This document shows positions 5,858 through 64,000 of a stretch of DNA of 64,000 bases, piece after piece. The stretch is from positions 434,001 through 498,000 of the forward strand of contig QPGO01000013.1 of assembly GCA_008632985.1 (NCBI GenBank), given 5' to 3'. Below the pieces are notes generated by a model that was not told where the DNA came from, searched no databases, and saw only the letters and a program-made list of their open reading frames with translations. The translations under genes and the position numbers were made by a program. Positions within the stretch are counted from its first letter, which is position 1. Each line of letters opens with the position of its first letter. This DNA is from Psammoneis japonica (lineage: Eukaryota).

Positions 5858-6253
5858 AGACTCGTTCCAGGTCTATGTAGGTGGGACCTCGTACTACTGA
5901 ACTGTGACATCGATAGTTTTTTGAGTCTCGTCGTATGTCGCGCACGTAGATTTCTACGTGATTTTTTCGATATTTTGTGTCATTTTACGGTACACTTATT
6001 GAGCGATCCGTCCAACAACTTTTGACATTTTTTGTTACAGCGCGATTCTACAATGTCTTAAGAATCGCGTAGGGCAGGCGAAGTTGCAAAAACGTCGAGT
6101 GGTAAGAGGCATAATTGTACCACAAACTTGGCCGTTTATTTGATGTTGAAGATAAATATATCCATTAATTAAATTCTCGTACTACAGAGCTCGCACGTAG
6201 AATTCTACGGGCCCAATGTCACACGGAGTCCCACCTAGGGCTGGAACGCGTCT
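5858..6253 (+). mobile_element. ~390 bp non-coding element with imperfect terminal inverted repeats (MITE-like), copy 1
   Basis: Ends AGACTCGTTCCAG..TAGGTGGGAC and GTCCCACCTAGGGCTGGAACGCGTCT; each arm carries the palindrome CGTAGAwTTCTACG; homologous inverted copy at 22143-22540. Confidence 0.7.
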
Positions 6254-6735
6254 CAACAGCAGCAATGTAAATTTCTCTCTTCTCCAATGACAAGGGGGGG
6301 GGGGGGGGGCACTGTGACCAATGTTTGCAGGAACTTGCTTCACAGTTTTGCTCTGCATGTGTGACGAACAAGCGCCGGCCAGCCGCTGTGACGAAGTGCT
6401 CCACACACATTGCCGAGGCAATGCCCAAGTGATCAAGTCCATCACTTTCCTTCTACAAAGGGTTTTCTTCTTGCCACAAGGTGACAACAATTGAGCCATC
6501 GCAGTCGCTGAATGTCATTGTGGCATGGGAAGAAAAACTGCAGGGTTCAGGATTCCATTTGCCCTTTCGAGCTCTGACAAATGACAAAGATCGACATTGG
6601 TGGCCCAGGTGGACAGCTGGTGCCGGGCGGAGGGGCCCTGCGGCAAAGAAATCCATGCATGTCAAAACGACCCAAAGTGTTGAATGTGAAAAAAAGAACG
6701 CCGCCGCTGCCCGCTGCTGTTGTCCATGTCATCCC

Positions 6736-7706
6736 ATGTCGACTTTTGACGATGCGGAAAGACCGTCCAAGCAGAACAGTGCTCGCCATTGCTCTCGGCA
6801 GGTGCGGTTTCTTCTTCATGACTGAATTCCGTTGTGGTCTCATGTGATTTGATGTTTGATTGTGCACTGCACAGCGGTCCTTCTTCTGGGCGGTGATGAG
6901 CATGGGCGAAAGAGATTGCCTCCAGGGTGTTTCAAGGATCAAGTGGATTTGTTACGTGCAGCAGGCTTGCCATTTGGATCCTTTCCTTTTCTACTTTCCA
7001 ATCGAGTCGTCTGCAAACTGCTGGTTGGATGCTGAGCATCTTTTTCTACCCATTGCTTTTGGAGGGAATCGGACTCCGAAAGCTGCACATGGACGAGTGT
7101 GTGAGAGATGCGATTTCTAGTAGAGAGCGAAAGATCAACCAGGTGCCAGTTGTAGCAGGAGGCTATGATGGGCTAGCTTGGCGAATGTCGCGAGAGTTTT
7201 CATCCGTCAATGTGTTTGAAGTGGATCATCCAGCAACTGGCGGGGTCAAGCAACATGCAATGGCTCGACTTGATGCGAGTTGCGAGAATCTAGACCATGT
7301 GCTGACTGACCTCACCGAGTGCACTTTGAAGCAAGCAGTGGAAAAGGCCGACAATTTTGATATGCGCGTTCCAACCATTGTAGCAATGGAGGGTCTGCTA
7401 ATGTATTTGACACAAGATCAAATCATTGGCATGTTCCGAGACGTTGCTAAAATTGTGGGCGAGGGATCAATTGTTTGTTTTGATTTTTTGGCGTGGAATC
7501 ATGCAGTCAACCGCGTGGATATGAATTTCATCTTCATGGTTCATGGACTTGTCAACAACTTTGGCGAACCTTGGTATTTCGGACTGGAGCGGTCGCGTCT
7601 CCAGGCATTTTTTCAAATACATTTGCCAATGTACAGTGTAACTGATCAACAACCAAGAGTAGGAATTGAAAATGTGGCGTGCGCAACGCTTGTGAAGAGA
7701 ATCTAA
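6736..7706 (+). pseudogene. Class I SAM-dependent methyltransferase (leucine-carboxyl-methyltransferase/Ppm1-like family) with a degraded 5' end
   Basis: Motifs PSRTVLAIALGR (other frame), QVPVVAGGYDGLAWR, VFEVDHPAT, AMEGLLMYL; the 5' part lies in a TpA-depleted tract and has frameshifts/stops. Confidence 0.65.
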
Positions 7707-21015: not shown

Positions 21016-22142
21016 ACAATTGGAGTAAAGAAAATTGGAGTAAAGAAGCTATTCAAGTCGTAGGCGGACCGTGAACGCGAAAAAGATACATATTAGGTAG
21101 GCTTGTAAAACCATTAAATTTACACCTTTCACTAATTGGATAGTACATAGACAAGGAAATTCTCCATTGAGACCGGAATGGGGAATATATCGGAGGTGCT
21201 ATCGCCGACCTTGTAGTTGCTGGCTGAAACGAACAACTGAGCCGCTTTTCTCGTGATATCTCGTCCTCTTGAATGCAGGTTCTTCTACACTTGCAGCAGA
21301 GCAATCTGATGATGAGGGGTCTTGTTCTTGATGAGAGTAGTTAGAGCTATAGCTGGCTTCCGAGTCTTTTCTTTTCGGAACGCGTGCTGGTGGCACTGAC
21401 GATCCAGGTGGTTCGTCGAAAGCTCTTGCTATTCTCGAGAGTTCCACTGTATCCACTTCACCGGGAAAGACAAGAAGAGACGATCTACTTGTGATAGAAG
21501 AAAGTCGATGATTCATGATAAACAATTCAATCCAGCGTTGAGGATCCCCTTCGAACGACGATGAAGCGATCTTACGTTATCGTAGTGCGTTCCAGTTCAT
21601 TCCCTGATCGAAAAATCCAAAATGAAGCACGCGAACAAAGGCGAACGCGCCTTTGCTTTGGTCGCGTGCGCACTCGTGACTGCAACTGCGAGAAAGTGAT
21701 GAGGCACGGGAACAAAATCGAAGCTCCGCACCCAATAGACACATCCAAGGTTGAATAAAATCCATTGACGAACATAAGTGTGACTTTTCCCGCGCAAAAA
21801 TTTAAGGCGCATGAGCCTTTTCCACATCAACATGGCAAAGGATCAGGATTCAGGATGCGCTTTCATCTTCATTCCAATGCTCTCGCCCCAACAACAAAAA
21901 CAAAAAACCGATAGACCCGAGACACCATGACCGACTACAAACGCTAGTGCTGCACAAAGGGACTAAAGAGTGCCACAGCGCAGTGAATGAATGGTGCGGC
22001 GGCGCAAGTGAAGATCTGCAGCAGCCGCACTGCGCTGCTCAAACTCATGCAGCTGCAGAGACGCGCTTTCCAGTCGGAGTCATTGACAGCTTTGCTGGAG
22101 TGAAAAAGACAAAACTGAGCAATGTTGAAATGTTTCGAGAGC

Positions 22143-22540
22143 AGACGGGTTCCAGTCCTGGGTGGGACTCCGTGTGACATTGGGCCCGTAGAATTCTGCG
22201 TGCGAGCTCCGCAGTGAATTCACCCTGCAATGAAAACATGCATGATCGCCAACAGAAAAAGAGACAATTTTACGAACGTATCTCCTCCTTCACACTTGGA
22301 GTAAATCATTGATGGTTTGCCCGGGTGTGTTCTTCAGACATCAAAGAACACACCCAGCATGTTTTCATTCTCACAAATGTTGAAAACAGAAAGCCTTTGG
22401 CTTCGCAAAACAGGGAGCATGAAACAATTTCGTAAAATGTCACACGTAGAAATGCACGTGCGCGACACACGACGCAATCCAAAAAACTGTTGATGTCACA
22501 GTTCAGTGGCACGAGGTCCCACCTGGAGCTGGAGCGCATC
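22143..22540 (-). mobile_element. ~390 bp inverted-repeat element, copy 2 (inverted relative to copy 1, partly TpA-converted)
   Basis: Both arms align to the reverse complement of 5858-6253; similar length; interior not recognisably homologous. Confidence 0.7.
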
Positions 22541-22692
22541 AGCACTTCGACGTGATTGGAGCGGGCGTTGAACGAGGAACTCTCCTCGGCTCAGATTTTT
22601 CAGCGGTTGTTTCTACAAAGCAAAACCCGATGCAGCTCGTGCTTGCAAAGGTGCCCGTTGTGGGTGCACATGCTTGATCAAGAGGCATCCTC

Positions 22693-24678
22693 TTGGCTTT
22701 GGAGGACTTTCTCAAGTCACCCAAGGTTCAAGAGTGCCGTCATGACTGCCCGCTTGTTTTGTCGACCTGCTTGAACATGGCACGGGCTCTCAACAAACTC
22801 GTTCTGGGCCAAGCAGACGTGAAGCTTGCCCCTCCCCTCGATCAGAGCCTCACTCGAGTCAATGAGTTGCTCATTTGCAATGGACTTGTTGATGCTCCAT
22901 CATCGTCCTCCGCAGACAGTGAGGCCAGTGATGGAGTTCTGGTCAAGTTTGAGCCTCGCCAGTGTCTTCCGCAAGACTTTGCACCAGTGTCTGAACACGT
23001 TGCTCCCCATCGCATCCAAGCTGCCAAGGCAGGATCCTGTCACATTTGTCCCTGTCCTTGTGAGAAATGCGCGGATGCTCTTGAGGTTCGATTTGTCGAC
23101 CCCGCCCTCTCCATTCCCCAGATCAAGTTGTTTCAGGACATCTGTGTGGACTGTGGAACGGATGAGTGCTTGGCCTGTCCTCGTCACGCAGCGGCCTTGG
23201 GTGAAACAGATCAACTGGCTCCAGATGTGCTTGCCGAGGTGGATCTGCAAATGTTTTGGGTGGCCGTTCTGAGGATCGACTCCTCCATTGGCATCTTGCA
23301 AGAATTGCCAGGAGTTGACAACAACCTGATCGGTCAATGGGAGGAACTGGAGATGGGAGTCAACATGAACCAGCAACACGTTGCGAGTCTTGTCCGAGAA
23401 AGGCATCTGACCAGACTCAGCTCAGTGGACAGTGAACAAGTCTTTCAGATTCAAGACAAGACACATCATGAAAGGCTTGCTCTGGATCATGCCTGCTTTG
23501 GCTTGATGCTGACGCTAGATGGCGTCGAGCCATTTGTGGATGCCTCGCGACCCATTCCTGATGCACAGTTCTGTAATTTTTGCCAGATGACAGAACTGCA
23601 AGCTCTCATCATGCCATTTGCGACGGCAGGGAAAATGGAACAACAAAGACCCTTCATTCAACAAGAGTGCACAAATGCTTTGCTCAGCAGGTTTGCGAGT
23701 GAAGGGTTCAAAGTTGATCCTGAAGCCTGTGATCAGACCGCATCGTGTGGCAATTGTGGAGAAAGTGACCCAAGCAAGCTCAAATTTTGCGGAGGATGTG
23801 GTGGAGTGGCTCATTGTGGCACCGAATGTCAGCATGTGTCATGGAGGGATCACAAGAGAGAGTGTGATGGGGCAACCGCGCTCGTCCGGGGCATTGTCAA
23901 TGACTTGGTTGCAGCGCGTGATCCAGATTCACCAACACCTGGTGGCCCAAACATCGTGGTTGGCAAGTCCTCACATGGTTCGGGATTGCCGACTCAAGCA
24001 GGCATGTTTGGTGAAGTCAGTGGCGTGGGAACGAGTTCCATCTTCTGGAACCCAGGTTCCATTTCCTGCATGATGACGTCCCCTGATGACTTGTCTGGAA
24101 TGGCTGTCTCTTTTGAAAATGAAATTGAATTTACTGACAGACTTGAGCTCCCGCCTGTTCTTCGTTTTGCTCTTTCTTGTGGACCGCTCTCAGACATCGA
24201 GTTGGCCAAGCAGACCTGGTCGGAAGCTTTGCAGCAAGTCGATGGAGATGCAACCCAGCTCAAAGTCAATGGGGCAGAATTTACCGCTCTTGAACGGGCA
24301 GCAAAAAAGGGAAACAAAGACACGGTAAAGTGGCTTTGCACAAACAAGCACACAAAATCTCTTGTTCACGTCAGTTCTCCGATTGGCTGGGCAAGTTGTG
24401 CCGGTCAAACCGAGGTCGTGCACTTGTTGCTGTCTCATGGAGCGGATCTTTCTGCGACAAACTGTGTGATGTGGGGAAACACACCGCCTCTTTTGGTTGC
24501 AGCACAGAATGGACAGCTTGAGGCAATGAAGCTGTTGGTGGACGAATGCGACATTGACATTCACATTCGTGATGCCTCTGGTCGTGGTGTCATTGAAAGC
24601 ATCTGCGACTCGCCGGTTTGGAGAGACATCGAAGGTCATGTTGCCAGTTACAACTGGGCAATGGAGAGACTGGCATAG
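22693..24678 (+). pseudogene. MYND zinc finger + ankyrin-repeat protein, open frame but hypermutated (true start uncertain, possibly upstream of the element at ~21928)
   Basis: CGNCG..CGGCGGVAHCGTECQHVSWRDHKREC MYND finger; ankyrin units 'TPPLLVAAQNGQLEAMKLLV'; only one Tyr in 661 aa. Confidence 0.7.
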
Positions 24679-35259: not shown

Positions 35260-38200
35260 CAGTGCTCTACTGACAAATGCTAGCAGCTGCCTCTGCTCCA
35301 GCCTGAGCTGCCAATTCTTGTGCGTTTCTTCTGAGAAGGGGGGGGGAGAACACCACGACAAGAGCAAAAGAAAGTTTGCACAAACAAGTTGCCAACATTG
35401 GCTCATCCCCAGGAGCAAGAGACCCAGTCTAAGTCTCTGTCAATTGTGACAAGAATGTCTCAAGAAGTGATGCTGATTTCTGACCCTGGTGATCAAGAGG
35501 GGGCAACTTTTGTCTGTTGGGCAGAGTGAAGGAGAGACGCTGCTCGGCTCTTGTGTGGGGGATGCTCTCTCTTCCCCCCTGGGGTGCTGGCTGGATGGAC
35601 CAGCTGCACTCTCATGGTTTGGCTGGTTGAGTCATTTGCCTTGTGGGGAGGGACCCAGAGAGGTGTCTTGCAGTCACGTGAAAGGCGCATTTCAGCCACT
35701 CATGAGACGCGCAGTTTTGGGCCTCTTGGGAAAAAATGTTTTTTTCGGAATTTTGAAAAATGGGACCTCGTTGGTCGGTGAAAGCAGGAGCAAACAGAGA
35801 GTGATTTTTCAAACCGGTTGGATGGGTCTGATTTTCATGGACCAAGTCCAATGATGCGCGAAGATGGACAAGGGATTGATGGTTTTGCTGGGCTTCGGTT
35901 GTCGACGTCGTGATGTGTGGAACACCGATCATGAAGTTGAGACCAAATTTGAGAAAAAGAGCTCGTGACATGACACGATTGCACAAAAGAATGCAGTTTC
36001 CAAAATGGTTCTACAGATTTTGTCATTGTTCACTCACGTCATGCAGCAGTGCAAAAGAGAAAAGTGGGGGGAACCTGACTCAATTTTGAGACAGAAGGCA
36101 CTGAAGTTGTTAAAAAATGGCACAAATGATGTCACTTTCTCAAAAAGCATTCTTTAATGAGAATGCATGTGAGGAGTTGCAAGAATTGTTCATAAACACA
36201 GAAGTGTGATTGTGTGATGCCAAGTTCCTGATCACATTTTTGAAGGGCCACACACGACAGTGTTGTGATGTCCCGCTCACAGACAAATGATGACATCATG
36301 TCATGACACATGTGACATCAACAAATCACCTTTGTTTCAGCATGGCTTGTTGCAATTTGTCATTGCAACAAAAGAAAGAGCATTTCATTTGTTCTTCTCC
36401 TTTGACAAAAATGTCGCCAATCCCAGGAAGAGGCTTCTGATTGGCCAAAACACCAAATGCAATGCCCACTGACAAAAAACACCATTCAAGCCCCACAAAA
36501 CAGTCACTTGAGCCCCTTAAAACTGACAAAGCACCCACCCACCTGTGCATGTGTTGCTGCCGTGATCAACACAGTCCCTGCCACTGTGTGCGCATTGGCA
36601 AAAGACAAAACAATGACAGGCAACAGGATGCCTGCAGCCAATGGCACAAACATTGGAGCCCTCATCACTTTGTCAGAAGCAAAGCCTGAGATGTCAAGAT
36701 GGAGGCACTGGAGCCTGGTCAAAAAGAGAGTTGGCCACTCTCCTCCTGCCAGTGTGCCTTGAAAATGCAGCACACAGAAAAAAAGCTTTGTGCTTGCACA
36801 CTGTGACCATGCTTTTGCAGTTTGTTCTCCCACCAGTTTGTTCTGTCATGCTTTTCAGTGCCTCACCACATGATTCATCCATGTGTGTGAATTGCACAGA
36901 AGGTTCTTCTGCTGCTGTGCATCACCAGAAACTCCTTCACAATGTGGCCCACTTCCATGCACACACTCCATGCTTGTGTTGTTTCAGCACCTTGCTCAAA
37001 TCACTGGCTTCTCCAATGCATGCCAAACTTTGATGACAAGCACAAGACAGAAGCACAACAAAGCAACAAAACTTTTTTGCACCAGGGGTGCAGCTGGTGC
37101 ACCTGGGGAGCAAAGCCAGCTGGCATGCTTTTCACAACCTTGGCGGGGTGTCCTTGCCTTTGCAGTGCCTTTTTTGTCTTCTTTTGATCAAGTGCTCCTG
37201 TTCCCTTTTTCAAGATCATGCACATGGCCCCAGTTTGGTTCACCTCCAGTGACTTTGCTTGCGCCCCCAGTTTGCAGCACACGACCCCTCCTGCTTTCAC
37301 TTGCAAACCCAGCCCTGCTGGCAGCTGGAAATGAGCTCTCTTGTTGTTTTTCCACATGCGCAAAAACAGCTCAGCAGCAGCTTCACTTCAAGCAACAGGT
37401 CTGCTTCTGGGTGACACCATCTGGCTTTGTTGGGTTGTGACTGCAGCTCTGTCAAAAAGCAAGCTGGTGTGTCTGGGTTGCCATCTGGCAGCACTGGCCC
37501 CCAAGCTGCAGCTGCTGTTCACACAGCACTTGCACGCCACAGCACAAACTGGGTGAAGCAAAATCCTTGAGAAGCTGGTCATTTCATGTTGAGACTGCAC
37601 CTGGAGTTTGCTTCTCTCAACTGCTTGGATGTCAAAATTGAGCCCATTGTGCAAAACAAACAACCAGCTCGTCCTGGCAAGTGGGCCGAGCCGGGAGGAC
37701 TTCTTTTCCGCCCCAGCGAGGCCCCCCTCTTTGCTTTTCATTTCACATTGCTTTCAGCACAAGAATCTTTGTGACTTGACTTCACCTTTTGTTGCAGTGC
37801 AACTTGCGTCGCACTCAAACTTCCTTCTGCAAAACTTGCAACTCATGCCAACCAGGGAGCTGTCTGAGAATGCAAATCTTTTGTTTTTTCAACAGCAAAA
37901 GCCGTGTTTGCTGCAGGTGCCTTGCTTCTGTGTCTTCTTTGTGCCAGTCAGTGCACCATTTTTTGTCCCACCTGCTCTCCCCCCCCCCCCTTGACTTCAA
38001 GCTGTGTGCCACAACTCAGGTTTCAGCACACATCATTCTGTCGCCTTTTTCCGTCAATCGTGCACCCCACCCACCACCTTTCTCCTCCTTCTGTGGCTGC
38101 TGAAGTCTGTGCGCAACTTGGCAAGAGAGAGCCTGGGAAAGGTCGATTGTTTAAACACAGCAGGTGGTTGATGTGACCTGTGAAACATTGAAAGCACTCT
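35260..38200. other. TpA-depleted degenerate tract, probably a transposon relic; family not identifiable
   Basis: Almost no TA, few CG, excess TG/CA; only fragmentary Cys/His-rich ORFs. Confidence 0.5.
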
Positions 38201-42589: not shown

Positions 42590-44040
42590 CTACGGTAGAG
42601 TCCCGACATGGTACACACCTCTAGAAACGTCAGTCATACCGAAGAAATCAAAGGATGCTTCTTGTAAGATATTCGTCTATGGCATGTCACACTGTTAAAA
42701 TACAACAATGTCGATACTGCACTGGTCCTAAAGACTGTCTTTGTCAGGAACGATATAATGCCATTACCTCGAACTGTAGGCTGAGAACTAGCTCCTCCTA
42801 TTAGGGCTCTATGCCTTCTCAAAGGCTATTGTTCACCGATGCAACAACACTTTGACATACTAAGCCTCTCTTTTCTCTGGCAAAGGCAATCTAGAGAGCA
42901 CCAGTAGAGAGCAGGATATACTCTTTAGTCCCCACCTCGAAACGGTAGTAGTCGCGTTCTGGTTCTGAAAAGTTATTCTACCGCATAAATCAGTGGAGTT
43001 TGAATTGATTACAGTAGGGCCTAGTATTCAAAAAGATGACTTGCATTTCACAATTCATCATGAGATCTTCCACAAACATGGCCAATCACCTTGGGCAAGG
43101 CATCCTGCAAACTCTCGGCCGCCGTGTGCAAATTTTCCAAAAACTCATCCTGCGTCGGCCGATCACCATCGACAATATCCGTCACAACCTTGACACCAAG
43201 GTGAGGCGTATCGTGCAATTTACATGCCCACGCAATCGAGGCAATTTCCATGTCTTTTACTGACGCATCATTTGCCAGCATGTGCTTGTCGTCCGTTTCG
43301 GTCTTGTCGAGACTGTTGCCCGTTGTACAGACACCCATTTTGGCTCCAATCGATTTGGCAAGTTCCGAGGCTGGGACCGAGTCGAGTTTGCCAACACCAT
43401 ACTCGACAAAGGACGGAATGGGAATGCGCCGATCGTGATGAGCCGTTCCAGTCGTGACAAAGACATCCCCAATCGCAGCACCTTTGCGAGAAAAGCCTCC
43501 ACACGTTCCGGCGTTGATTACCAAATCGACACTATCCTCCAATTTTTGCAATGCCAAAAAGACAGCCATGGCTGCCGGGACGGTACCGCAATTGTCCACG
43601 CCTGTTCCGTACGTTTTGTCCTTGCCATTGGTAATGACTGTAACGTTGCACGCTTCGTGAATGCCCTGAAAGGCTCAAGAACGGAGCTTGCTTGGGGAAA
43701 AACTCGTCGACTGGGTTCAACTGCAAATGCTTGACAAAGGGCATGGCCTCTGCTTCCATGGCAATTGCAATGACGACACTGCTCAATGAGACAAAAGAAA
43801 AGGAGAAAATGTTGAGAGTGTTCCAGTGAGCAAAACAGTTCTTGCAGAAATCGATTTCTGCTGCGACATCTTTCTCACATGCCGAGAGGGGTATTCTTTT
43901 TTACGAATTTTAAACTCACTTTTCAATAGTTTTTGCTTCTAAAGGAGGCATGTCTTTGGTAAGAGATTTCACAAGAGACACAGCAAAGAGAAGAAGGAGC
44001 AACAGCTTGCGAAAAGTTGTAAGACACCATTGCGACTTTA
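42590..44040. repeat. ~1.45 kb segment duplicated in direct orientation at ~53530-54990 (copy A)
   Basis: Colinear similarity over the gene, intron and both flanks. Confidence 0.9.
43048..43951 (-). CDS. MTN: 5'-methylthioadenosine/S-adenosylhomocysteine nucleosidase, copy A (exon 1 MPPLEAKTIE; 1-nt frameshift near 43675 relative to copy B)
   Basis: IAMEAEA, DLVINAGTCGGF, STGNSLD-like motif, VKDMEIASIA, KVVTDIVDG. Confidence 0.85.
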
Positions 44041-44289
44041 AACATCGTAGACTCCAGTCGTGTGTCGTTTGGCATTTCATTCTTGGTGCTGAGTCGTGGG
44101 TTTGCATAGCAACACGGTACTACGCACAGCACCGTAGAGCTCTACTGCTTTTAGAGCCACTGCTCTAAAGAGTAGCCAGCTATGCTGGCTAGCGCTAGCT
44201 AGCTAGAGCTGCTCCACTAAGAGTGGAGAGCATGTAGCAACCCGATTTTCGATGTGTCTGTACTTCTAATCGTCGGATTTATCATTGGC

Positions 44290-47200
44290 AATTCTTTTCG
44301 TGCCATGCTGATCCCGTTGTTGTGTCGATTGCTGTGAAGCTGTCAGGAGACCGACACATGATGGAACATTTGTGTTTTTTGCTTCAGCAGTGCTTTGTTG
44401 ATTGTTGGGAAGGTTGTCAGCGGCCCTGAAGCTTGTGCTGGTCCACAACACAAGCCTGCTAAAAAATGGCCACATTCACAGCACGGTTCAGCAGCAGATT
44501 TTGTCCAGATTGCTGGTGTTTTGGTCGCTGGTGTTTTTGTGAAGCAAGGGCTTTTGACCAAGGCAGAAGAAGCTCTCCACTTGTCTTCTGTCTTGAGTGT
44601 CTGTCTGGAGCAGACATCCAGATGACATGCCAACTGGACACTTGGAGCTCTTGAGCTGGCCTCACAGCATGCTCTGCTCTTTCATCATGATCGTCGGCCG
44701 ATCCCAAGCATCCTTGACATGGTGTGCTTGTGGCAATGGAAACAGAGGGTTTTGAGTGATCCAAGGAAGTGCCATCTGCAGATGCCAAAGATGCTTGGAA
44801 TGCATTTCACAATCATGGCTGTCAAAGAACACAGACTTTGTGTTGAGTGCTTCACAGGAGCACACTGCAGCCTGGGAAAACACAACAAACTGACATTTGT
44901 GTTGAGTGCTTCATGGGAGCACGCAGCAGTCTGGGAAAACACAACAAATTGGGATGCCCAAAGTGCAGCACCCTTTGTGCCAAGTGTCAGTGTCATTCTC
45001 TTCAGCGCACTCCACAAGATGGAACAGCAAGAATGCAGAGAAGGGAGTCTGATCATGAAACAAAACAACCTGGCCAGAGAAGAGGGACTTTGTTTGATGC
45101 TTTGAAAGCACGCTCAAGAAGCAAAAACCAATTTGCTTGGTCTTTCCTTGGTTGGATGGCTGGAAAGACAGTGGAAAGCTGGGTCTGTCTGCAAACTGCT
45201 GCTCTCTTGTTCCAAAAGATGACCCTTCTTAAATGGGAGACAGCAGCAGTCAAAAGGGTCAAGCTGGTGAAATGTCTTCATTCAATTGTGGTGGTCTGCA
45301 ATGACTTGAGCAAGACTCAAAACAATGCAACCCAATGGTGCACAACCCTGCAGATTGTGCACTTGCAAATCTTGCAAAATCAGATGACAGCTTCCTTTGC
45401 AACTTCATGTTCTGTCTCTCTTGCCAAGAAGCTAGAAAGAAAGTTGAGGCAAGGAAGGGCAAGAAGTTGGACAGTGGCTGATGGAGCCATTTGTTCACAA
45501 AGTGTTTTGCTGCTGCTAACATCATGAGGAGTGTGTGATGCTCAAATGCCAGAAGTGGTCTCATGCAGTCACTGACTGGCTCACACTTGGCTGCTCAAGT
45601 TGCACCCGACAATCTCTCTTCTCTGCTTTCTGGATTTGGTCCTGCAACAACAAAGCACACTGAAAGGTGGAGGAACCAGAAATCTGTGGATCAAAAAACA
45701 ATGAATGAAGAGTTTGACTTCTCCAAAACATTGAAGTGCAACCACCTGTGCAACCAGCAAGACAACTGTGGGCACAAAGTTCATGGAAAGAAGAAGAGCA
45801 AGGATGGCCTGTTCAAACCACTCAACAAGCAATGCTTTCACATGACTGAGAACAAGCACAACCACTGACAGAGACTGCTTCAACCGAAGCTGTCTTGACC
45901 AAGAGGTTTTTGGCTGGGGAAGCCTGACCACAATTTTGAATCAGAATGACAACTTGAGCATTTTGATTGTTGTGAAGCTGTGTGAAAGGCATCAATCACA
46001 CAGATGAGGAGCATCTGGCAAGACTGCAATTGAGGATCATCAAGTCTGTGATGGTTTGTGAGTCAAAAAAGATGTGGCTGAGGACTGCACAGCATGCAAG
46101 GATGATGCTGCAGATGGTGGGGTTTGAATGGCAAGGTGCACCACACACTGGCATGAAATCATGTCACAGGCGACACTTGACAGTGCTGATTTGGATCTGT
46201 GCTTTTCTGAGTCATGACGGCAGATTGGTGCGAGAATGTGCACATTGACAATGATGAAGACAATGCTCCTGGTGAGGTGTCAACTTTTCAGTCAGTCAAC
46301 AAAAGACACATGGCTGTGCCTCTTGATGCCAATTTTGCAAATGCCAGCACACTGAAAAGGGTGCATGTCTCTTGTGGCCAGCTTTCTAATTGATTGGTGG
46401 TGCTCATTGCCAGCACTGAAGAAGCTCACAGAGAAAGCAATCTTGTTCAGAAAAGCCACCAATGGGAAATTCATGCATGCTGACAGATTCACAGAATTGA
46501 TCATCCATGATGAATGGCACCATTTTGGGGGTTGTGTAAATGGCACCATGGAAAACCATTGCAAGCAGTGCCAAACAACAGCAATGATGCACCAAGCACC
46601 AGTCATGTGGCAAAGGTGGCAACAAAGCAAATGGCAAGTGGCCAGCCAAGGAAGCTGGAGCTCATTGACAAAGTGTTTTGTGAAACTTTGCTGCATGTTG
46701 AAGATTTGAATCTTCATGGAGACAGTCCAGTTAAAAATGCTCCAGCAGGTCCATGCTTGTTGGAATGGCACAAATGTTGTCATGCAGGTGACTGGGGGAG
46801 CAAGTGTCAGTCAGGGAGTGCATTGGCCCATCTGGCATGAAACTCAATGTGGGTGCTTGCTTTGGTTTGTCACACTCAGTGATTGTTGACAGAGATTTTT
46901 TTGTTTCCACATGGAGGCAGAAGATTTGAATGACCCCAAGAGACCCAAGGGTGAGGGTCAAATGGATCTGTTGGTGCTGGATCCACTCAGGAATGCAGCT
47001 GACAGCACTCAGTTTGAGCTGGAAAGGAAGTGTTCCATGTCAACTGACTCCACATGCTCAGTGGAAAAGGGTGTCCATTTTGGCAAAAGAGGCAACAACA
47101 GAAACAGGCAAGCTTGAGGAGGAACTGCAAAGGTGCTGCAACAAGAGGAAAATTGACAAAGAGTTCCTCAGGAGTGCAAAGGAATCAGAAACAGTGTGGA

Positions 47201-47550
47201 GTGTCAATGCTGATGGCCAAGCCAGGGTGTGTGCCATGCAGAACAAGACTTTCTCAGTTGGCGACATTGTCAAGGCATCAAGGCAAGAAAGAAGCTCATG
47301 GAGTTGGACTCCATCTGGAGTGAAAACAGTGCAACAATGTGACACATGAAAGTTGAGATGCCTGGATGATTGCCAGCAATGAGGATTTCCAACCCAGGCT
47401 GAAAAAGAGCTGAAGCATGATCTGTGCACCTTTGAGAGCACTGGGGCAAGAGAGGTTTGGCACTGACACTGTGCAGTTTATCTCATCTGAAGGAGCAGAC
47501 AAGAGTGGTGATGATGAAGTGGCATCAGCACTGTTGCAGACATCAGAAGG
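44290..47550. other. TpA/CpG-depleted degenerate tract of unidentified origin (left part of the large block)
   Basis: No intact ORF; composition identical to the adjacent LINE relic. Confidence 0.45.
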
Positions 47551-47599
47551 ACTGGGGAAATGGCACGCAGTCACAGCAACTTTCCAGTTCTAAATTGAG

Positions 47600-50500
47600 G
47601 TTTTTGCACTTGCAAAAGATCTCTGCAATGCAAGCATCACATGCACCTGCATCTTGCAAATCACTGTCAATCATCTGCCTGTGTCCAACAATTTCCTGAT
47701 CAAATGTCAATGATGTCTGAGACATTGTCTGATGTGTCATCCTCCTGGACCTCTCTGCAGGGTTGTTGAGAGGCTTCATCTTTGGCTCCTCTTGCTTGGA
47801 ACAATGCCCCTCAATGAGATCAGCAACCTGTTCTAAAAGTGTTGAATCTGGACTCTTCAGCTTCCCCCCACAATCAAAGTTGCCGTGATGTGCTTTTCTC
47901 ACTCCTCTCACTCCAACAATCTGAGTGCATTGGAGCACACAATGCCATGTGTTTTTTTGCTCTCTTCTTCTTTGATGAAGCTGGAAAACACAGAAATGGC
48001 TTGTTGCATTGCTTGCAAAAGCAGGCTGGCTGCCATCTGTCTTTGATGCAATTCACCGAACATGAGATGAACATCAATCAGTGATTTTCCCATCAACAAT
48101 TCCAAAATCCTTGGAGCAACCCAAGGCTGATCTTGGGACTGCAATGTTGGGGCAAACCTTTGCTGCAGATTTGGCACCATTCAGTTTGAGCCTCAGCAGC
48201 TTTGATTGAAGCTCCATCAAGCAGCTGACAGACAATTTGATGTGAAAATCATCTGATGCTTTGGTGGCACAATTCACAACAGCAGCCAGCTGCAGATCAA
48301 AACTGGAAGCAACAAAAAAAAAAATTTGCTGTGTGAAGAAGATGGAGATGTGGCAATGCTTGTCAATCATCACAGTTGTTGAGCAGCAGGCCTCCGAGTT
48401 TCACACAACATGGAATGGTTTTTTTTTCATTTTTTTGGTGTTGGGTGCAGAGGCATCAATTTGCAAATGTCAGCACATGGTGGGCCAGGTTGCATTTTCA
48501 CATGAACATGCAGATGGCAGCATGCCAGGACAGAGATGAATTTACAGATGATGAATCCAATGACAAGGACATGACATTGCTGGACAAACTTGAGCCATGT
48601 GCTCTGTCAGATGGCCTGCACCTTGTCAACTGCAAGGAGAGAGTTTTTGGCAAGACATGGGCCACAGCTGGCAAATGGCAAGAATGACAGTGTGGCACCA
48701 AGACTTTGAACAACTCAAAGGACAGAACCCAATGAATGAGGCTTTGTCATCACTTTTCTTCTTGAGTTCCTCAACTTGTTTTTTCAAAGTGCCAGCCAGT
48801 GTGACATGAAATCCCAACATCTTGTGGGGTGCATGCAGGGGATGCATTCTAGCCCTGGCAGGTGGTGACTTCATGTGGCCCACAGAGTCATGCACACAAG
48901 CTCTGCAGCTCTTGTGCTGGCCGGTCAGTGCACACATTTGTCTTCAACATCTAAACTCAATGATCAAGTTTGTGGCACACAATTGCAGCACCTCTCAACA
49001 ATGCTTGCAGTTTTTGAAAATCCACCTTCCCCACACAATTCTCAAGACATTTGAGAATCATGCTATGAAGAAAAGATGTCAAAAGTTGCTCAATGGATGT
49101 CCAACAATTGTGCCACAAAATGTCACAAAATTCCACCAAAGTCACATGGAAATGTGCACACATGACATGCAGTGTGGGGCAAAAAACCATCAATGTCACA
49201 GCTCAGCACTGGCAGCATGAGGTTTCACCTGGAGCTGGAATGCATCAGGAACAGATAAATGCTGCATGACAGAAGGAGTGGTCTGCCAAGCAGATTTCCT
49301 GCACAAGTCTTTGCTTGTGCATGGCCAAAGATGGGGCTTGACACATTTGGCAAAATTCCATTTGATTGTGCAAAACCAGCACTTTGGGAGGTCCAATTCA
49401 TGGCCACATGCACTCAGCAGATCACACAACAGCTTGTTGTTTTGTTGGAGAGGCAAGGTGCCAGGTCACATGCCAGCAGCTGTGAAGAAGCTTGAAAGTC
49501 ATCAACTTGCTCAAATGCATCATCAACATGGCCGCGGGTGTGGACTTGCAAGCTGAAGCCACCATCAGGGGCAGACTGCAAAAAGCCCTTTTCAAGAGTG
49601 CAAGAATGCAGGGGGGAGTCAGCCGCTGCTTCCTTGACCTGTGCTGCAATGGGTGCACACCAGCAGAGTGACAGTGACAAGTTGCAGTCAGTGCAGTGAC
49701 CAGAGTGAGAGGAGTCAGTTCTGTGCTTCTTTGTGTGCAGCATTGGTGGCAAAGTGCACAATGTTTTCTCATGCATTCTCCCAAATTCTTGGCACAAATT
49801 GCCACAATGCATGGGACACTTTAGCAGCAGCAAGACATGCAGCCATCATTGCCAGCTGTCAATGTTTTCTAAGAAGTTGTGGAAAATTTCATCATTGGGA
49901 TCTCAAGAAATGCGGGAGTGCCAGAACACCTGAAGGCAAGATTGCCACAGATGCTGAGGTTGTGCAGGCAGTTGTTTGCAAAATGATGGGACAACTCTTG
50001 CCATTTGACACTGCAGATGAGTTGGAAATCAGCTTTGGAGATGTTGACAACCAGGAGTCTCAGTGAGTCTTGTTGTCATTGCCAGGTTCCTTGAAGACCA
50101 CAATGTTGAGACAACATCTTTCCATGAGCCACAGGAGCAAAAACCCATTTGAGCATGCAGCTCAACAAGTTCAATCAAATGGCAGCCAAAGATTTTTGTG
50201 GTGACCCAGCTGTGTTCGTTTTTGGTGGGATTGCCATGCTCATCTTGAGAAGAACAGTGCAGGTGCTTTGCACAAGTTGCCTTCCAGCACTCCAGATGCA
50301 GTGCTGATTTGATGGAGGTGGGCTTGGGTCACTTTCCAATTTTTTTCAGGTTCTTGGAAGAAGAAGAGAGTGCATCAGACATGGACACTCTGGAGTCTGT
50401 CTCTGCAGAGATGTTTGGCTGGCAGCAAGGTGGCCTCATTGAGGGCACTGGCCTCACACTCACCATTGAACACAAGCTCAGCCATTGCAGTGTCTCCCTC

Positions 50501-53450
50501 ACAACCCAGATCTGTGGAAAACAGAGGAACAGTGGGAGGAGTTTTGCAAGCTTGTCCCAAGTGCTTTTGACTTTGTTTGCCTTGAGAGAATCTCCACAAC
50601 ATCTTCAGGAGCATCTGTTGTGACCCAGCTTGTGCACTCCTTGAGACTCTCCTCTGGATTCTCAGGCACCAGAATGTTGTGGACACTGGTGCTTTCTGTG
50701 CAAGACCAAGCCTTAATTTTTTGAAATGTTCCGCTGGTTTCTTTGGTGGTGCACATGTTGCACAGAACCTTTGCCTGTTTCTTGGACTTGTCAGTGCCCT
50801 CTAAATTAACTCCAGCAATGCAAGCATCCCACTCTTTTCACAGTGACAAACACCATCTCCAGCCACCTGCTGGCACTCAGCTTGGGCCTTGGGAAGCCAA
50901 GTCTCTGACACTCTGCCTGTTCTTTGCCTGGAATGAGTTGATGCTGGGTGAAAAGGATGGAGTTCCCACAAAATTGACACCCCCCACCTTGTGCATGGAA
51001 GGGACCCGCCGCATCAGAACAAATGCTTTGTGGAGCTGTGCCAGCTGAAAAAACCACTCTGTCTTTTCTGAAACTGTCCACAGTGTCAAGCTGCAGAAGA
51101 TGCAAACTGCAGCATGCAACAATCTGATTGTTCAGCAAGCAAGGGTGGGATCTGCAACATCAGATTGCAGGAGCTGAGCACTCCTTGCCAGGACATTTGT
51201 GTGGACCCATGGAAAATCCACAAATTGGGCTTGATGATCAAAGGAAATGCAACAGCTAAAAAGAGCTCACAACCACAAGAACAGACCACATCAAGAACTC
51301 CTGGAGTCACCAACATGTGGTCCAATCTCTTTGATCTGTGGACAAACAACAAGCACCAAAGCTGTGACATCCTGTGCATGGCTGAACATCCTTGCACGGC
51401 CCACAAGATTGAGCTGACAAAAGCCAATCTTGCTGAAGAATTCTCATCATTGGCAAAGTCTGCATTGAAGTTGCCAAAACACTGCAGCTTCAGAGAATGG
51501 ACTGTCAGAAGGTGAGTGTGCAGTCACACTCATGATGGAAAGCACATGTTGCAGATCGCTGCCCAACACAGCAAGGAGATCTCTGGTTCAGTGGTGTCAA
51601 GGCACATTGGAGACATGCCCACCAAGTCTGTCTGGACTTCATTTGCCAGCTGAAAAAAGGCAACAAAATTGCCATTGGCACAAGCATTGAATTTGCACCC
51701 ATTTGCACTGGAGGTGTGCAGACAAGTGCAGTGTGAATCTTCCTGAGTCAGACAAGCTGGAGCGATCAATCTGTTGAGATGAATCAAGGAAGGTGAGTTG
51801 CTGTTGAGACAAGATCTAACTCCACTGCTGCTGAAAAGGAAGCTCTGGGAGGAGACTTGGGAGGAAGGCACTGACCCTGCATCTTGTTGAGAAAGGAGGG
51901 CAGGGAGGATGACTTGTCCTGCCTTGCACAGAACCTGACTTGGTCTGGGTCATGGCAGTCATGGCACAGCACATTGAGGATGACTGGCCTCAGACACACT
52001 GGGTTTCAAAGTGAGTGGTCTTTTGGGAGTTGGGGGGGGNNNNNNNNNNNNGGGGGGGGGGCAGAAAGGGGCAAAACAAGAGCAGCAACTTGATGGTGAA
52101 AAATGGCCTGAGGAAATTGCTGAATGTCTTGTTCATGGAGCTTTTCCTGTGCTTTGTGAAAATTGGGTTGTGACCTCAAGGAATCAACTTCAGTCACAAT
52201 GGCTGACACTTTGCACACTTTCTTTTTGATGACATCTGTCATTCAGTGAAATTCCATCATTGGACAATGTGTGGCACAGTGATCCCACAACAAAGTGTTG
52301 ACCCAAATTCTGAAAACACACGGAGTTTTGAAGTGCCCATGCACAGAATCATGTTGCTCAGGCAAAAGTCATTGTGTGAAGATTTGGAGAAAAAGCATTC
52401 CTTGAGGCATCCATCAAGTGGAGAAGCATGGCAGAAGCACAAGAAAAATGCTGACCCAAACCCTGTTTGTTTGTGATTTTTTCCACATGCAAGAAAATTT
52501 CCACATGATCATTGCACCATGGCTTGTTGAGAGAGCCCCAGCTGTGAAGACTTGCCAATGCGATCAAATGCGTGGCATCTGAGGTGTCTTTGAGATGCCA
52601 GGAATTGTCAGATGGGGCAGCCTGCCACCACAGGGAGCACATCACAGCCAGGCAGGTTGTTGACCACAGCTTGAAGATTTTGCAACAAAGCTGGCAAACC
52701 AGCTTGTGCATTTTGCACCAAGCTAACACACTCTGCACCACAAGGGACAACATCAACCACTCCTTCTTCCAAGGAGCCAGGGTGTGACCAAGTGGCTTTC
52801 TCATGCTCGTTTGGGTGAGAATGATGCCAACTTCTTGATGGAATCAGAAAATGGGGATCATTTTTTAGAATTTCTGTCAGACATTGAGCACTTCTTTCAC
52901 ACTGTTGCAGGGAGTTTCCACTGACAAGAACTCTGCATGAATCACTTTGTCATCATTGGGAGTGTGACAGATTGAGGAATCAACTGCTGAGTTGGGAGCT
53001 TGGCACAATGTCTCAGTTGGGGAACAAGGCAATGAGGCACTTGAGTGCCAAAACAGTGGAGTGGTGCATTGGCAAATTGTCCACAATCTGGGCAGTGTGG
53101 GCCACACATTGGTCACTGTTTTGTCCCATTTGTGAGATGACACACAAAGACGGCATTGTTCTTTGAAGTCTTTTGCACAAAAAGCAACATGTTGAATTTT
53201 GATGAGGAGAGAGAGGCATGGAGTTGGTGTGAACAGTGATGCAGGTCAGGGCACAATGACCGGTGCCACTGATGTGGTGGACAACAAAGTGCTGGGAGTC
53301 AGCAAGGCCAGGTGTCCGCTGAACGCCATGTTCGTTGATTTCAGGGACTGTTTTGCCACTGCTGGAATCAAGTGATCTCCTGCATTTCCACCAAGCTGTT
53401 TGAAATGCCAGAACCAGATCTGGTGGGAGTGTGTGGAGCATTTTCAACAG
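47600..53450 (-). mobile_element. Degenerate non-LTR (LINE-like) retrotransposon; ends approximate; assembly gap at 52040-52051
   Basis: Ordered minus-strand RT fragments: WK..TSIKSALHLECWKA (~50280-50345), VVFKEPGND..SKADFQLICSVKWQEL (~49995-50105), STGQGSSG (~49622-49645), GHVDD (HVDD at 49519-49530), LLSACGHELDLPKCWF (~49375-49422). Confidence 0.75.
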
Positions 53451-53529
53451 CAGGTGGAGGATCGGGTTGGTGAGTGCCGGCATCATGGTGATGAGATCTT
53501 GGTGCAAAAAGCACGTGAAAAAGCAACAA

Positions 53530-54990
53530 GTCCCGACACAGGTGTGGGCACGCACCCAGAAACGGCAGTCATGCCCGAAGAAATCAAAGGATGCTTCTTG
53601 TATGACATGGGACCGTCTGTGGCCTGTCACACTGTTAAAATACAACAATGTCGAAAATGCACTGGTGCTAAAGACTGGCTTTGTCGGGAAAGGATACAGC
53701 ACCGTAGAGTGATTTGACGCGAAAACTGTGGGCTGAGAACCAGCTCCTCCTATTTGTGTTCTATGCCTTCTCAAAGGCTGTTGTTCACCGACATCACTAA
53801 CCTTTGACACACCAAGCCTGTCTCTACTCTGGCAAAAGTAATCTAGAGAGAGTGCCAGCAGAGAGCAGGTTATACTCTAGTCCCCACCTCAAAACTGTAG
53901 AGTCTGAGAAGCAATGCGCTCTGTTTCTCAAAAGCTATAGTACGGTTTTTAATTACAGTAGTATTTTAAAACATGTCTTGCATTTTACAACTCATCATGA
54001 GGTCTTCCACAAACATGTTCAATCACCTTGGGTAGGGCACTCTGCAAACTCTCGGCTGCCGTGTGCAAATTCTCCAAAAACTCATCCTGCGTCGGCCTAT
54101 CTCCATCGACAATATCCGTCACAACCTTGACACCAAAGTGAGGCGTATCATGCAATTCACATGCCCACGCAATCGAGGCAATTTCCATGTCTTTGACGGA
54201 CGCATCATTGGCCAGCATGTGCTTGTCGTCCGTTTCGGTCTTGTCGAGACTGTTGCCCGTTGAACAGACACCCATTTTGGCTCCAATCGATTTGGCAAGT
54301 TCCGAGGCTGGGACCGAGTCGAGTTTGCCAACACCATACTCGACAAAGGACGGAATGGGAATGCGCCGATCGTGATGAGCCGATCCAGTCGTGACAAAGA
54401 CATCCCCAATCGCAGCACCTTTGCGAGAAAAGCCTCCACACGTTCCGGCGTTGATTACCAAATCAACACTGTCCTCCAATTTTTGCAGCGCCAAAAAGAC
54501 AGCCATGGCCGCCGGGACGGTACCACAATTGTCCACGCCCGTTCCGTACGTTTCGTCCTTGCCATTGGTAATGACTGTAACGTTGCACGCTTCGTGAATG
54601 CCCTGAAAGGCTAAGAACGGAGCTTGCTTGGGGAAAAATTCGTCGACGGGGTTCAACTGCAAATGCTTGACAAAGGGCATTGCCTCTGCTTCCATGGCAA
54701 TCGCAATGACGACACTGTTTAGTGAGAAAAAGGGGAAAAAGATGAAATTATGTGAGTGTGTATCAGAAAGCATGCTATTGCTTACAGAAATCGATTTCTG
54801 CTGTGATCTGTGATAGTATCTTTCTCACATACACAGATGGGTATCCTTTTTGTACGAATTCAACTCACTTTTCAATAGTTTTGGGTTCTAACGGAGGCAT
54901 ATCTTTGGCAAACGACTTCACAAGAGACACAGCAAAGACAAGAAGGAGAAAAGCCTTGCACGAAAAGTTGTAAGACACCATTGCGACTTG
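53530..54990. repeat. Duplicated segment, copy B
   Basis: Aligns to 42590-44040; the left ~350 bp carry TA->TG/CA changes. Confidence 0.9.
53985..54900 (-). CDS. MTN: MTA/SAH nucleosidase, copy B (intact; exon 1 MPPLEPKTIE, intron ~54715-54868)
   Basis: Same motifs as copy A, uninterrupted frame. Confidence 0.88.
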
Positions 54991-62734: not shown

Positions 62735-63646
62735 GTGTGTAATACAGTTTTGAAGTTTAGAACGAGCGGAAGAGAGGCCTATTGTATAGATATGTCGAGA
62801 CGCTGGACGCGACGGTAGAAGGAGCCTCCTTTTTCGTGTGTACGAGTCGAAATAAATCTCTATAGACTTTTTGGTCGTTTTCGTGAAACACATCATGGCT
62901 TTTGCTCTCATCATATATCGTAGTCTATGAACGAATCGCCCGGAACTCTTTCATGTCGCTTTATGATCACGGCTTGGTGTTATGGCCACTCGGGTGCCAC
63001 CGTCTTATACCGTTGTTGTTGTTTTTTTCATCGGCACACCGCCATCGTCATACCGTACATGCATGGTCTTTTCACTTCTTCTGTTCAGTCGAGTCCAACC
63101 AAAGACAGACACGGACACCAAAAAAGTATCTTTCTTTTACACAGACAAATAGACTGTCTGTCGATCGTTCCACTGCTGTCCATCCCAGAGGTTCCACATC
63201 CCCGGAGCTCTCAGCTTTGTTGCTGTCGGCAAAAAGAAAAGAGAGTCATTGTTTTTGGTGGAATTGTTGCTCACCAACCAGCACCAAGACCATCATTCCA
63301 AGGGAACAACTCAGCCAAACAACGGCAGTTGCCGATGTGCTGGCAGCGCTTTTTTTTTGTCAAGAGGGGGGTGCCGCTTCCGTTGTGGAGAATGCGTGCC
63401 ATGTGTTGCCATTTTCTCTGAGTTTTTTGTTGCATGAAATGCCATGCTAAAAGTGATGTGGGGAAGCGACACAAGAAACACACACAAAAAGTGTGGCAGG
63501 GTGGGTGGTGGTTTTGAACCAGCCTCTTTGCAGCTTGCCAATGTGCACAAGGCTTTGCGCAAGCTGCAGGAGGATTTTGTTTGCAAGCTGGTTGCAAAAC
63601 TTGTTTGCAAACAAGTGTTTGTGAAATTTCAAGGGCCTCATGTTCA

Positions 63647-63890
63647 TCATGAGACCCCACAAATGCAGAGGGACCCTCCTGCAGAGCTCTGCGCGAATTT
63701 TTGCATGTGGCACTGAAACATGTAGCCTGCATGCGCAAAACTGGCACAGTTTCTATGACAAAAATCCGAAAAAACACCTGGTTCGCGAGACAGCTCTGGC
63801 ACAAAACCTGCGTGAACAGTCCCCATGCATTCAGGCAGAACTCTGCACATTTCCGGGTTGCGGGTCCCTCCGAATTTGTGGGGTCCCATG
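63647..63890. repeat. Imperfect ~29 bp inverted repeat pair inside a TpA-depleted tract
   Basis: CATGAGACCCCACAAATGCAGAGGGACCC versus the reverse complement of GGGTCCCTCCGAATTTGTGGGGTCCCATG. Confidence 0.6.
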
Positions 63891-64000
63891 ATGAATGTGG
63901 CTGCAAACTCGCTTGCAAACTGGTTGCAAACTGAAGAGCTGAAACAGCTTGCAGCTCAGTCAGTGTGCATGAATCGCGGGCATGGCATGATGGTGAGGAG

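Follow-up and report, generated by a model that had tools for sequence, protein, structure and literature searches.

The window analyzed here, a stretch of 64,000 nucleotides (nt) from contig QPGO01000013.1, contains tracts from which the dinucleotide TpA (hereafter TA; likewise CG, TG and CA) has almost vanished. The longest of these, the main tract, spans positions 44281 to 53600 and is located between two tandem copies of a phosphorylase gene. Comparisons of composition, repeat copies, duplicated genes and a conserved protein family show the tracts to be what is apparently host-genome DNA in which TpA was regionally converted to TpG or CpA, through A:T-to-G:C transitions on either strand, in place and to saturation. 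That an in-place mutational process directed at TpA was at work is very probable, and, with only slightly more reserve, we consider this the best explanation overall. Deamination of adenine, as the chemical step, is proposed tentatively. The TpA hypermutation measured in the alga Bigelowiella natans would, as we infer, be a process of the same kind.

Loss of TpA in the main tract and across the window

The original prediction, made by eye, put about two dozen TA dinucleotides in the ~9.3 kb between positions 44290 and 53600. The exact count is 24, compared to 645.9 (rounded, 646) expected from base composition (a ratio of 0.04). The excess of TG and CA that was noticed at the same time is equally real, with 1071 TG against 590.5 expected and 1058 CA against 561.7, both ~1.8 times the expectation; an equally strong loss of CG, which had not been stressed, accompanies it (51 against 513.5; 0.10). 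The remaining 12 dinucleotides stay at 0.82-1.23 of the composition expectation. As a baseline, we used the non-tract part of the window, with a TA frequency of 0.0394 over 44,273 dinucleotides. This baseline predicts ~366 TA for positions 44290-53600; a count of 24 or fewer has a Poisson probability of 6e-122. Relative to the baseline, TA in the main tract is at 0.07, with AA, GA, AT and TT at 0.98-1.14 (AA at 1.14 and TT at 0.98). The edges of the main tract are abrupt: on the left, TA occurs about every 10 nt until 44280 and next at 44460, and on the right, the segment from 52867 to 53600 is free of TA, which becomes dense again from 53601.

The same signature, as originally predicted, recurs in five smaller tracts, where TA is at 0.03-0.09 of the baseline in each. 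Together with the main one, the six tracts comprise 16,335 TA-free nt, or 25.5% of the window; outside these sharp-edged tracts, the baseline ratio of observed to expected TA is ~0.5-0.9. The tracts and their parts, none of which has a strand, are the following, with counts given against the baseline expectation.

44281..53600: main TA-free tract with sharp edges; TA 24 against ~366
44281..44530: left shoulder of the main tract, TA-free, with half of the CG lost; TA 1 against 9.8, CG 7 against 13.8
44531..53150: CG-poor core of the main tract; CG 32 against 475 (0.07), TA 23 against 340
53151..53600: right shoulder of the main tract, TA-free, with half of the CG lost; TA 0 against 17.7, CG 12 against 24.8
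1..591: TA-free tract truncated by the window start; TA 1 against 23.3
5221..5857: left half of a TA-free tract; TA 1 against 25.1, CG 16 against 35.1
6254..6952: right half of the same tract, ending at an LCM methyltransferase open reading frame (ORF); TA 2 against 27.5, CG 29 against 38.5
22615..24131: TA-free tract covering the first ~485 codons of a gene; TA 2 against 59.8, CG 57 against 83.6
35431..38151: TA-free tract with a CG-poor core at 36037-37535; CG at 0.12 of the baseline in the core and 0.57 and 0.38 in the shoulders, TA at 0-0.07 throughout
63151..64000: TA-free tract truncated by the window end; TA 3 against 33.5

The two halves of the tract at 5221-6952 are separated by a TA-normal, 396-bp repeat at 5858-6253. 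Partial loss of TA is seen on both sides of the tract at 22615-24131, at 21500-22614 (12 TA in ~800 nt) and at 24132-24700 (5 TA in ~550 nt). Inside the main tract, there are two tandem copies of a 56-59-nt unit (44837-44951; 89% identical) and a scaffold gap of 12 N (52040-52051).

Separation of TpA conversion from CpG decay

The summed frequency of the pyrimidine-purine dinucleotides is nearly the same in the baseline (0.2351) and in the main tract (0.2371). Compared to the baseline, the main tract has lost 342 TA and 461 CG, 803 in all, and has gained 822 TG and CA. Because the gain matches the loss, the purine/pyrimidine pattern has been kept, indicating transitions inside TA and CG rather than avoidance of these dinucleotides by other routes. 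When the same balance was drawn up by tetranucleotide context, no correlation was found (r -0.01), over a range that is probably too narrow.

The two losses do not coincide in space. CG is reduced to 0.07 and 0.12 of the baseline in the two cores, and the outer 250-600 nt of the tracts keep CG at 0.38-0.57 of the baseline with TA at 0-0.10; the tract at 22615-24131 retains 0.68 of its CG. Given that the shoulders and this tract keep CG while being free of TA, the processes acting on TA and on CG are separable, with the former reaching further. TA-free shoulders that extend beyond CG-poor cores appear to be a new detail. Decay of CpG driven by 5-methylcytosine (5mC) explains the change of CG to TG or CA in the tract cores (CG at 0.07-0.12 of the baseline; 22 sites against 0 in copy C of the repeat described below), but it cannot remove TA, which is also lost where CG is largely kept, namely, in the tract at 22615-24131 and in copy B of the repeat (12 of 15 CG). 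The claim that a distinct process turns TpA into TpG or CpA on both strands, separately from CpG decay, thus gains support from the tract flanks, the repeat copies and the protein family that are considered next.

Conversion in place of sequences with known relatives

Three sets of related sequences bear on the ancestral state. The main tract lies between the two tandem copies of a gene for a PNP_UDP_1 phosphorylase, the opposite ends of which face the tract.

42623..44038, minus strand: phosphorylase gene, tandem copy A (Pfam PF01048, E 6.5e-20), 85.5% identical to 53558-54989
53558..54989, minus strand: phosphorylase gene, tandem copy B (Pfam), 85.5% identical to copy A
53540..53997, no strand: start of copy B, adjoining the tract and partly converted; TA of copy A (42610-43060) is replaced here by TG or CA at 11 sites, and the reverse holds at 3
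43761..44043, no strand: end of copy A, near the tract and partly converted; TA of copy B (54697-54994) is replaced here by TG or CA at 6 sites, and the reverse holds at 1

When the two flanks are pooled, the tract-side copy has lost TA at 17 of 21 sites (17 against 4; binomial p 0.007, Fisher p 0.016), and in the core shared by the duplicates, the differences between TA and TG or CA number 2 against 1. Because opposite copies lose TA in opposite flanks, this host sequence has been converted according to its distance from the tract. A second tandem duplication serves as a comparison: the SLC4 genes at 13725-15733 and 16615-18633, which are 95.4% identical over 2 kb, have 62 and 66 TA, and differences between TA and TG or CA are split 4 to 5. 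This untouched duplicate argues against a duplication trigger of the kind known from repeat-induced point mutation (RIP).

The second set is a repeat family that resembles miniature inverted-repeat transposable elements (MITEs), with three copies in the window.

5858..6253, forward strand: copy A, ~396 bp, with terminal inverted repeats, TA-normal (TA 30 against 15.6), splitting a TA-free tract
22140..22528, minus strand: copy B, with TA largely converted and CG kept, in a partly TA-depleted zone
48936..49206, minus strand: copy C, fully converted, inside the main tract, where contig depth is raised in the DNA run described below

The inverted arms of copy A (5858-5881 and 6230-6253) are 24 nt long and 79% complementary. 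Its 27 TA that can be aligned with copy C correspond there to TG (14), CA (7) or other dinucleotides (6), and the reverse change occurs once (21 against 1); CG in copy A is matched by TG or CA in copy C at 22 sites, with no reverse case. Over the 170 well-aligned nt of copy B, 10 of the 12 TA of copy A are now TG (4) or CA (6), again with no reverse case, and 12 of the 15 CG are kept. Both copies B and C have changed at 10 of the TA sites of copy A; the outcome was alike at 5 of these and unlike at the other 5, where one copy has TG and the other has CA. A gain of TA in copy A by a RIP-like process predicts no such unlike outcomes, so TA is the ancestral state in the repeat family. At two further sites, TA is kept in copies A and B, and at one site, TA is newly arisen in copy C, in the context CTAG.

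The third set involves a gene that is largely covered by one of the tracts.

22678..24678, forward strand: ORF of 666 amino acids (aa), a member of a conserved family, whose N-terminal domain is specific to the family and which also carries a MYND finger and ankyrin repeats (Pfam)

This protein contains a single Tyr in 666 residues and none in the first 500, with 5.4% Cys and 2.8% His; in six ordinary genes of the window, Tyr, Cys and His make up 3.3%, 1.5% and 1.2%, respectively. The translations of the tracts had been described as free of Tyr and rich in Cys and His, which is borne out for this ORF, the one significant ORF in a tract. An exhaustive search found many relatives, 13 of which span the N-terminal part and were aligned; their Tyr content is 1.4-3.4%. 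In the 8 columns with a Tyr majority among these 13 homologs, the window protein has Cys six times, His once and Phe once. The converted columns include two with Tyr in 13 of 13 homologs as well as the Tyr of the MYND finger (10 of 10). Of the 13 aligned Tyr of the closest relative, none is retained, the replacements being Cys (8), His (1), Phe (3) and Leu (1); the codons behind the Cys and His replacements are TGY and CAT. Relatives of this gene in 11 metagenome loci (~67 kb) are embedded in DNA of ordinary TA content with no TA-free tract, a sample too small to gauge prevalence; the family, therefore, is not TA-free by nature.

The loss of conserved Tyr, the repeat copies and the flanks of the duplicated gene together show mutation in place, with TA ancestral. 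The observations on the SLC4 duplicate, the tract shoulders and copy B also show that the TpA process is independent of sequence duplication and of the CpG decay superimposed on it.

Target context and coding effects

The 37 TA that survive in all tracts (16.3 kb) are distributed unevenly among contexts: 25 are in YTAR, 6 in YTAY, 6 in RTAR and none in RTAY (Y, pyrimidine; R, purine). YTAR thus accounts for 25 of 37 surviving TA, compared to 16.7% of the baseline TA (p 8e-12), and ~180 RTAY would have been expected. Among individual tetranucleotides, survival is 0 for ATAC/GTAT, ATAT and GTAC, 0.025-0.048 for the contexts with TAY on one strand, 0.10 for CTAG, 0.27 for CTAA/TTAG and 0.33 for TTAA. 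The order of survival points to the A of 5'-TAY-3' as the target, of which RTAY contains two good ones, YTAY or RTAR one, and YTAR none. The apparent order of preference is TAY, then TAG, with TAA the least favored. The products are skewed as well: YTGY and RCAR gained 25 per kb, compared to 13.5 per kb for YCAY and RTGR. The preference for 5'-TAY appears to be a new detail. The order of TG and CA along the DNA shows no strand clustering in a runs test (z 1.5 in the main tract; 0.05 and -0.2 in two others).

The consequences for coding follow from enumeration of the codon positions. Conversion of TA to TG or CA can never create a stop codon, TAA becoming TGA or CAA, and TAG becoming TGG or CAG; Tyr codons are turned mostly into Cys codons and otherwise into His codons. 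The predominance of Cys over His at former Tyr codons fits the TAY preference, given that Tyr is encoded by TAY on the sense strand. The inability to create stops is, as it appears, likewise a new detail. On the two strands of the main tract, there are 25 TAA, 18 TAG and 516 TGA triplets, compared to 221, 231 and 373, respectively, in an ordinary 10-kb stretch. Because TpA conversion removes TAA and TAG and never makes stops, an open frame in such a tract is no evidence of function. The longest ORFs inside the tracts were considered as genes and dismissed, as they seem to be frames left open by chance: where TGA is the sole remaining stop, an ORF of 226 aa is expected an estimated ~0.4 times in the tract.

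Authenticity of the sequence

The stretch is contained in only one public DNA run, X1, in which 96% of the sampled words are present. The platform of X1 is not on record, and X1 may be the assembly's own sample. Contigs of X1, built from exact 31-letter words at a depth of ~60-70, cover 43715-52039 in three records that differ from the assembly by 1, 0 and 0 letters over ~8.3 kb. This agreement argues against an artefact of basecalling in noisy reads; given that X1 is of unrecorded platform and possibly the sample of the assembly itself, it does not amount to independent proof. Among the 51 X1 contigs aligned here, 27 match parts of the tract at 90-95%. Contig depth is raised only at 44824-45627 and 48844-49245, so that most of the tract appears to be single-copy in X1 at an identity of at least 90%, with a few pieces (44824-45627 and the region of repeat copy C) repeated elsewhere in the genome. 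A second set, X2, consists of transcript-like contigs with high depth on genes only; none of these aligned to 44422-52039, a result that is uninformative on expression.

Mechanism and alternative explanations

Under the explanation that we favor, the CG-poor cores would be cytosine-methylated, silenced DNA, as their loss of CG suggests, and the TpA process would be recruited to such domains and reach 250-600 bp past them. In diatoms, transposable elements (TEs) are methylated, and loss of DNMT5a depletes methylation and de-represses young elements (PMC9998398). The process would act in episodes, given that a later repeat insertion was left untouched; conversion would have ended before repeat copy A and the segment at 44039-44280 arrived. 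This segment, wedged between phosphorylase copy A and the main tract, is unconverted and TA-rich (19 TA against 9.5 in the baseline), as well as rich in short palindromes around CTAG/GCTAGC, and is possibly a later insertion. Adenine would be deaminated to inosine in DNA by a deaminase of the TadA/ADAT2 type. The natural target of TadA is U-A-C in the anticodon loop of tRNA-Arg, and the TadA/ADAT-like enzyme, one of the two mechanisms offered in the original prediction, would fit the 5'-TAY preference.

The prediction that the process operates in repeat or silenced domains holds only in part. Most of the main tract is single-copy (at 90% identity or more in X1), no TE or viral domain was detected, a gene of a host family was hit, and a 95%-identical duplicate was spared. 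No Pfam family exceeded the cutoff in 93 ORF pieces of the main tract (at least 60 aa) or in 67 pieces of the other tracts, the rows at E up to 0.1 being at chance level. A tblastn search with 82 ORFs found no match to decayed paralogs of the window genes in the tracts, and low-stringency self-BLAST of the window recovered only the repeat family and two short internal repeats.

Several observations weigh against the explanation or narrow it. No mutation was seen happening, everything here being read from the standing sequence of one window, and the methylation and silencing of the cores are deduced from CG loss alone. The agreement with X1 is not independent proof, as this may be the assembly's own sample. 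The absence of viral or TE protein domains from the 160 ORF pieces leaves targeting of 'foreign DNA', as in B. natans, unsupported here, and a gene of a host family lies under one of the tracts; homologs of this gene in the 11 metagenome loci have no TA-free tract nearby. The TA-rich segment at 44039-44280 directly adjoins the main tract and yet is unconverted, which can be reconciled with spreading only by a later insertion of the segment. With respect to chemistry, the single case of Tyr replaced by His has T before the codon, which the TAY rule does not favor; the unclustered outcomes (runs z 1.5) give no hint of a processive single-strand enzyme; and A-to-G at TAY is the same in sequence as T-to-C at RTA, so that attack on adenine and on thymine cannot be told apart.

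The alternatives differ in which of the above they accommodate. A sequencing or assembly artefact, in which base modification caused the basecaller to read TA and CG as TG or CA, would produce nearly equal numbers of TG (1071) and CA (1058), as do strand-wise miscalls, and the sole DNA run is of unrecorded platform and possibly the assembly's own data. Nevertheless, contigs of exact words reproduce 8.3 kb with one difference, which noisy long reads would not do; mutation is consistent with the gradient of loss in the flanks, with survival that depends on context and with TG or CA outcomes that are independent between two repeat copies; and the later repeat insertion within a tract reads normally, all of which makes an artefact very improbable. 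We assign a still lower probability to inherited composition, with the tracts being foreign or viral DNA already low in TA and CG on arrival, or with selection acting against TA in them. Many viruses are reportedly poor in both dinucleotides, the tract edges are sharp, and most of the main tract has no relatives in the window. However, a host duplicate with TA intact elsewhere is converted where it abuts or enters the tract, the degree of conversion within one repeat family (none, partial or full) depends on where the copy lies, and invariant Tyr residues of a conserved family are lost, which is the opposite of selection. RNA hyperediting of A to I by an ADAR-like enzyme, followed by reverse transcription and insertion, could draw on the preference of ADARs for U before the edited A, as cited in bioRxiv 10.64898/2026.01.13.699255. 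Against it, flanking host DNA shows graded conversion in place, a repeat of DNA type with inverted ends is among the sequences affected, no reverse transcriptase domain was found in the ORF pieces of the tracts, and ADARs favor G on the 3' side, whereas TAG and TAA are the most resistant here. To our knowledge, ADARs are known only from animals, and this scenario is extremely improbable.

The chance that the tracts were produced by error-prone patch repair by a Pol eta-like polymerase (WA to WG), one of the two mechanisms in the original prediction, is no greater. Pol eta does misinsert opposite T at WA motifs, but WA includes AA, which is not depleted (AA at 1.14 and TT at 0.98 of the baseline), and TA loss of 93-100% shows a clear dependence on the 3' base. 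Closest to the favored explanation is the same in-place TpA process with another chemistry, in which thymine in 5'-RTA is modified (e.g., by TET/JBP-type oxidation to 5-hydroxymethyluracil, 5hmU) and then mispaired or misrepaired to C, or in which bases are flipped by an enzyme resembling a DNA methyltransferase. The data fit equally, T-to-C at RTA being A-to-G at TAY, and 5hmU is enriched at TpA in dinoflagellates. Conversely, 5hmU opposite A is not strongly mutagenic, and the natural TadA site has the same 3' pyrimidine that is preferred here; we regard thymine chemistry as unlikely, albeit a realistic contender.

Other features of the window

The window is gene-dense and intron-poor. Its genes, as identified with Pfam, encode two tandem SLC4 bicarbonate transporters, an SRP54-type GTPase, an S10 carboxypeptidase, transaldolase, GAPDH, BT1, LCM and DnaJ. 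In feature-based look-ups, which provide leads only, the nearest clusters of the S10 carboxypeptidase are mostly from Bacillariophyta and those of the BT1 protein mostly from Oomycota; they suggest a stramenopile, with a diatom as the likeliest choice and in line with the mention of diatoms in the original prediction, rather than a chlorarachniophyte such as B. natans. A possible first exon of the LCM gene within the tract at 6254-6952 gave no Pfam signal even at E 10. In the phosphorylase gene, an X2 contig that probably represents a paralogous copy (37+10 letters different; region 43022-44038) skips 43778-43920, with GT..AG ends on the minus strand, pointing to a 141-nt intron. On the minus strand at 58896-61382, an 828-aa ORF consists of ~159-nt tandem units (self-match offsets of 159, 318 ... 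nt; 70-85% identical), with weak matches of some stretches to an atypical PilZ model and locally high GC (0.58). Overlapping internal direct repeats (67-86% identical, offsets of ~75-440 nt) are found at 31600-34130, in and beside a 504-aa ORF without a Pfam family.

Relation to known systems and implications

The nearest parallel comes from mutation-accumulation lines of B. natans, where 231 of 302 new nuclear substitutions fell in two viral regions, one of an integrated giant virus and one of a virophage (Mettrop et al., bioRxiv 10.64898/2026.01.13.699255). Of those in the viral insertions, 230 of 231 were A-to-G or T-to-C, all of these on TpA; the genome contains 124 clusters of windows poor in TpA and rich in CpA and TpG, and an ADAT2-like candidate is named, with natural DNA activity of such enzymes documented only in a few cited cases (same preprint). 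The two systems share several features: in both, only TpA is hit, becoming TpG or CpA by strand, the process is regional and seemingly episodic, the footprint is TpA-poor and CpA- and TpG-rich, and an agent of the ADAT2/TadA type is proposed. The original prediction had presented a new kind of process; the preprint already describes the same TpA hypermutation, so this is not a categorically new kind.

The two also differ. In B. natans, a chlorarachniophyte (Rhizaria), new mutations were measured, whereas here they are deduced, in a stramenopile- or diatom-like genome. The saturation is much greater here, with TA at 0.04 of the expectation compared to a rho of 0.45 in the region of nucleocytoplasmic large DNA virus (NCLDV) origin in B. 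natans. The B. natans process targets integrated viral DNA; in the tracts of this window, no viral or TE protein domain was found, a MITE-like repeat lies within one tract, and a gene of a host family is covered by another. CpG decay co-occurs in the cores here, and CpG is absent from the main text on B. natans, as are a 3'-base preference or any wider context, TA-free shoulders and diatoms.

RIP in ascomycete fungi is similarly a regional, both-strand transition hypermutation in a dinucleotide context that ruins its target, but it turns CpA into TpA, making TA and stop codons, the opposite of what is seen here (TA at 0.04, TG and CA at 1.8 times the expectation). RIP is also triggered by duplication, whereas here a 2-kb, 95%-identical duplicate is untouched and most of the main tract is single-copy. 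TadA/ADAT2 and the adenine base editors derived from them convert A to I at an A that follows T or U and precedes C, as in the TAY found here; the natural enzymes act on tRNA. With APOBEC/AID and ADAR of animals, the process would have in common the use of a deaminase mutator against unwanted nucleic acid. However, APOBEC/AID deaminate C, and ADAR acts on double-stranded RNA with a 3' G preference, in contrast to chromosomal DNA converted in place with a 3' pyrimidine.

A single preprint from 2026, on an unrelated alga, is the only report of the process so far, and our full-text literature search, mainly of works outside subscription journals, found no report joining diatoms or stramenopiles with the TpA hypermutation signature. 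What is new here is the lineage, if confirmed, the degree of saturation, the 5'-TAY rule, the architecture of shoulders and cores, the independence of duplication, the conversion of a conserved host-family gene and the inability to create stops. A broader scenario can be offered only as a speculation that we consider rather doubtful: a chromatin-guided DNA mutator of 5'-TAY, probably an adenine deaminase, would be common to Rhizaria and stramenopiles and old within the SAR group (stramenopiles, alveolates and Rhizaria); here it would have acted to saturation over a quarter of a gene-rich window, spreading a few hundred bp past methylated cores and hitting host genes, and the long, Tyr-free, Cys- and His-rich ORFs that it leaves may serve protein novelty as well as silencing.

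A mutator that removes Tyr codons, TATA-like motifs and TAA and TAG stops changes the reading of 'intact ORFs' and of gene annotation. The three-base target (TAY > TAG > TAA), the spatial relation to CpG-decayed cores and the finding that duplication is not the trigger provide testable handles. If the organism is a diatom or another stramenopile, TpA hypermutation would not be a curiosity of a single species but part of a wider eukaryotic handling of unwanted DNA, and, if this is true, stramenopiles would offer transformable model species for identifying the enzyme.

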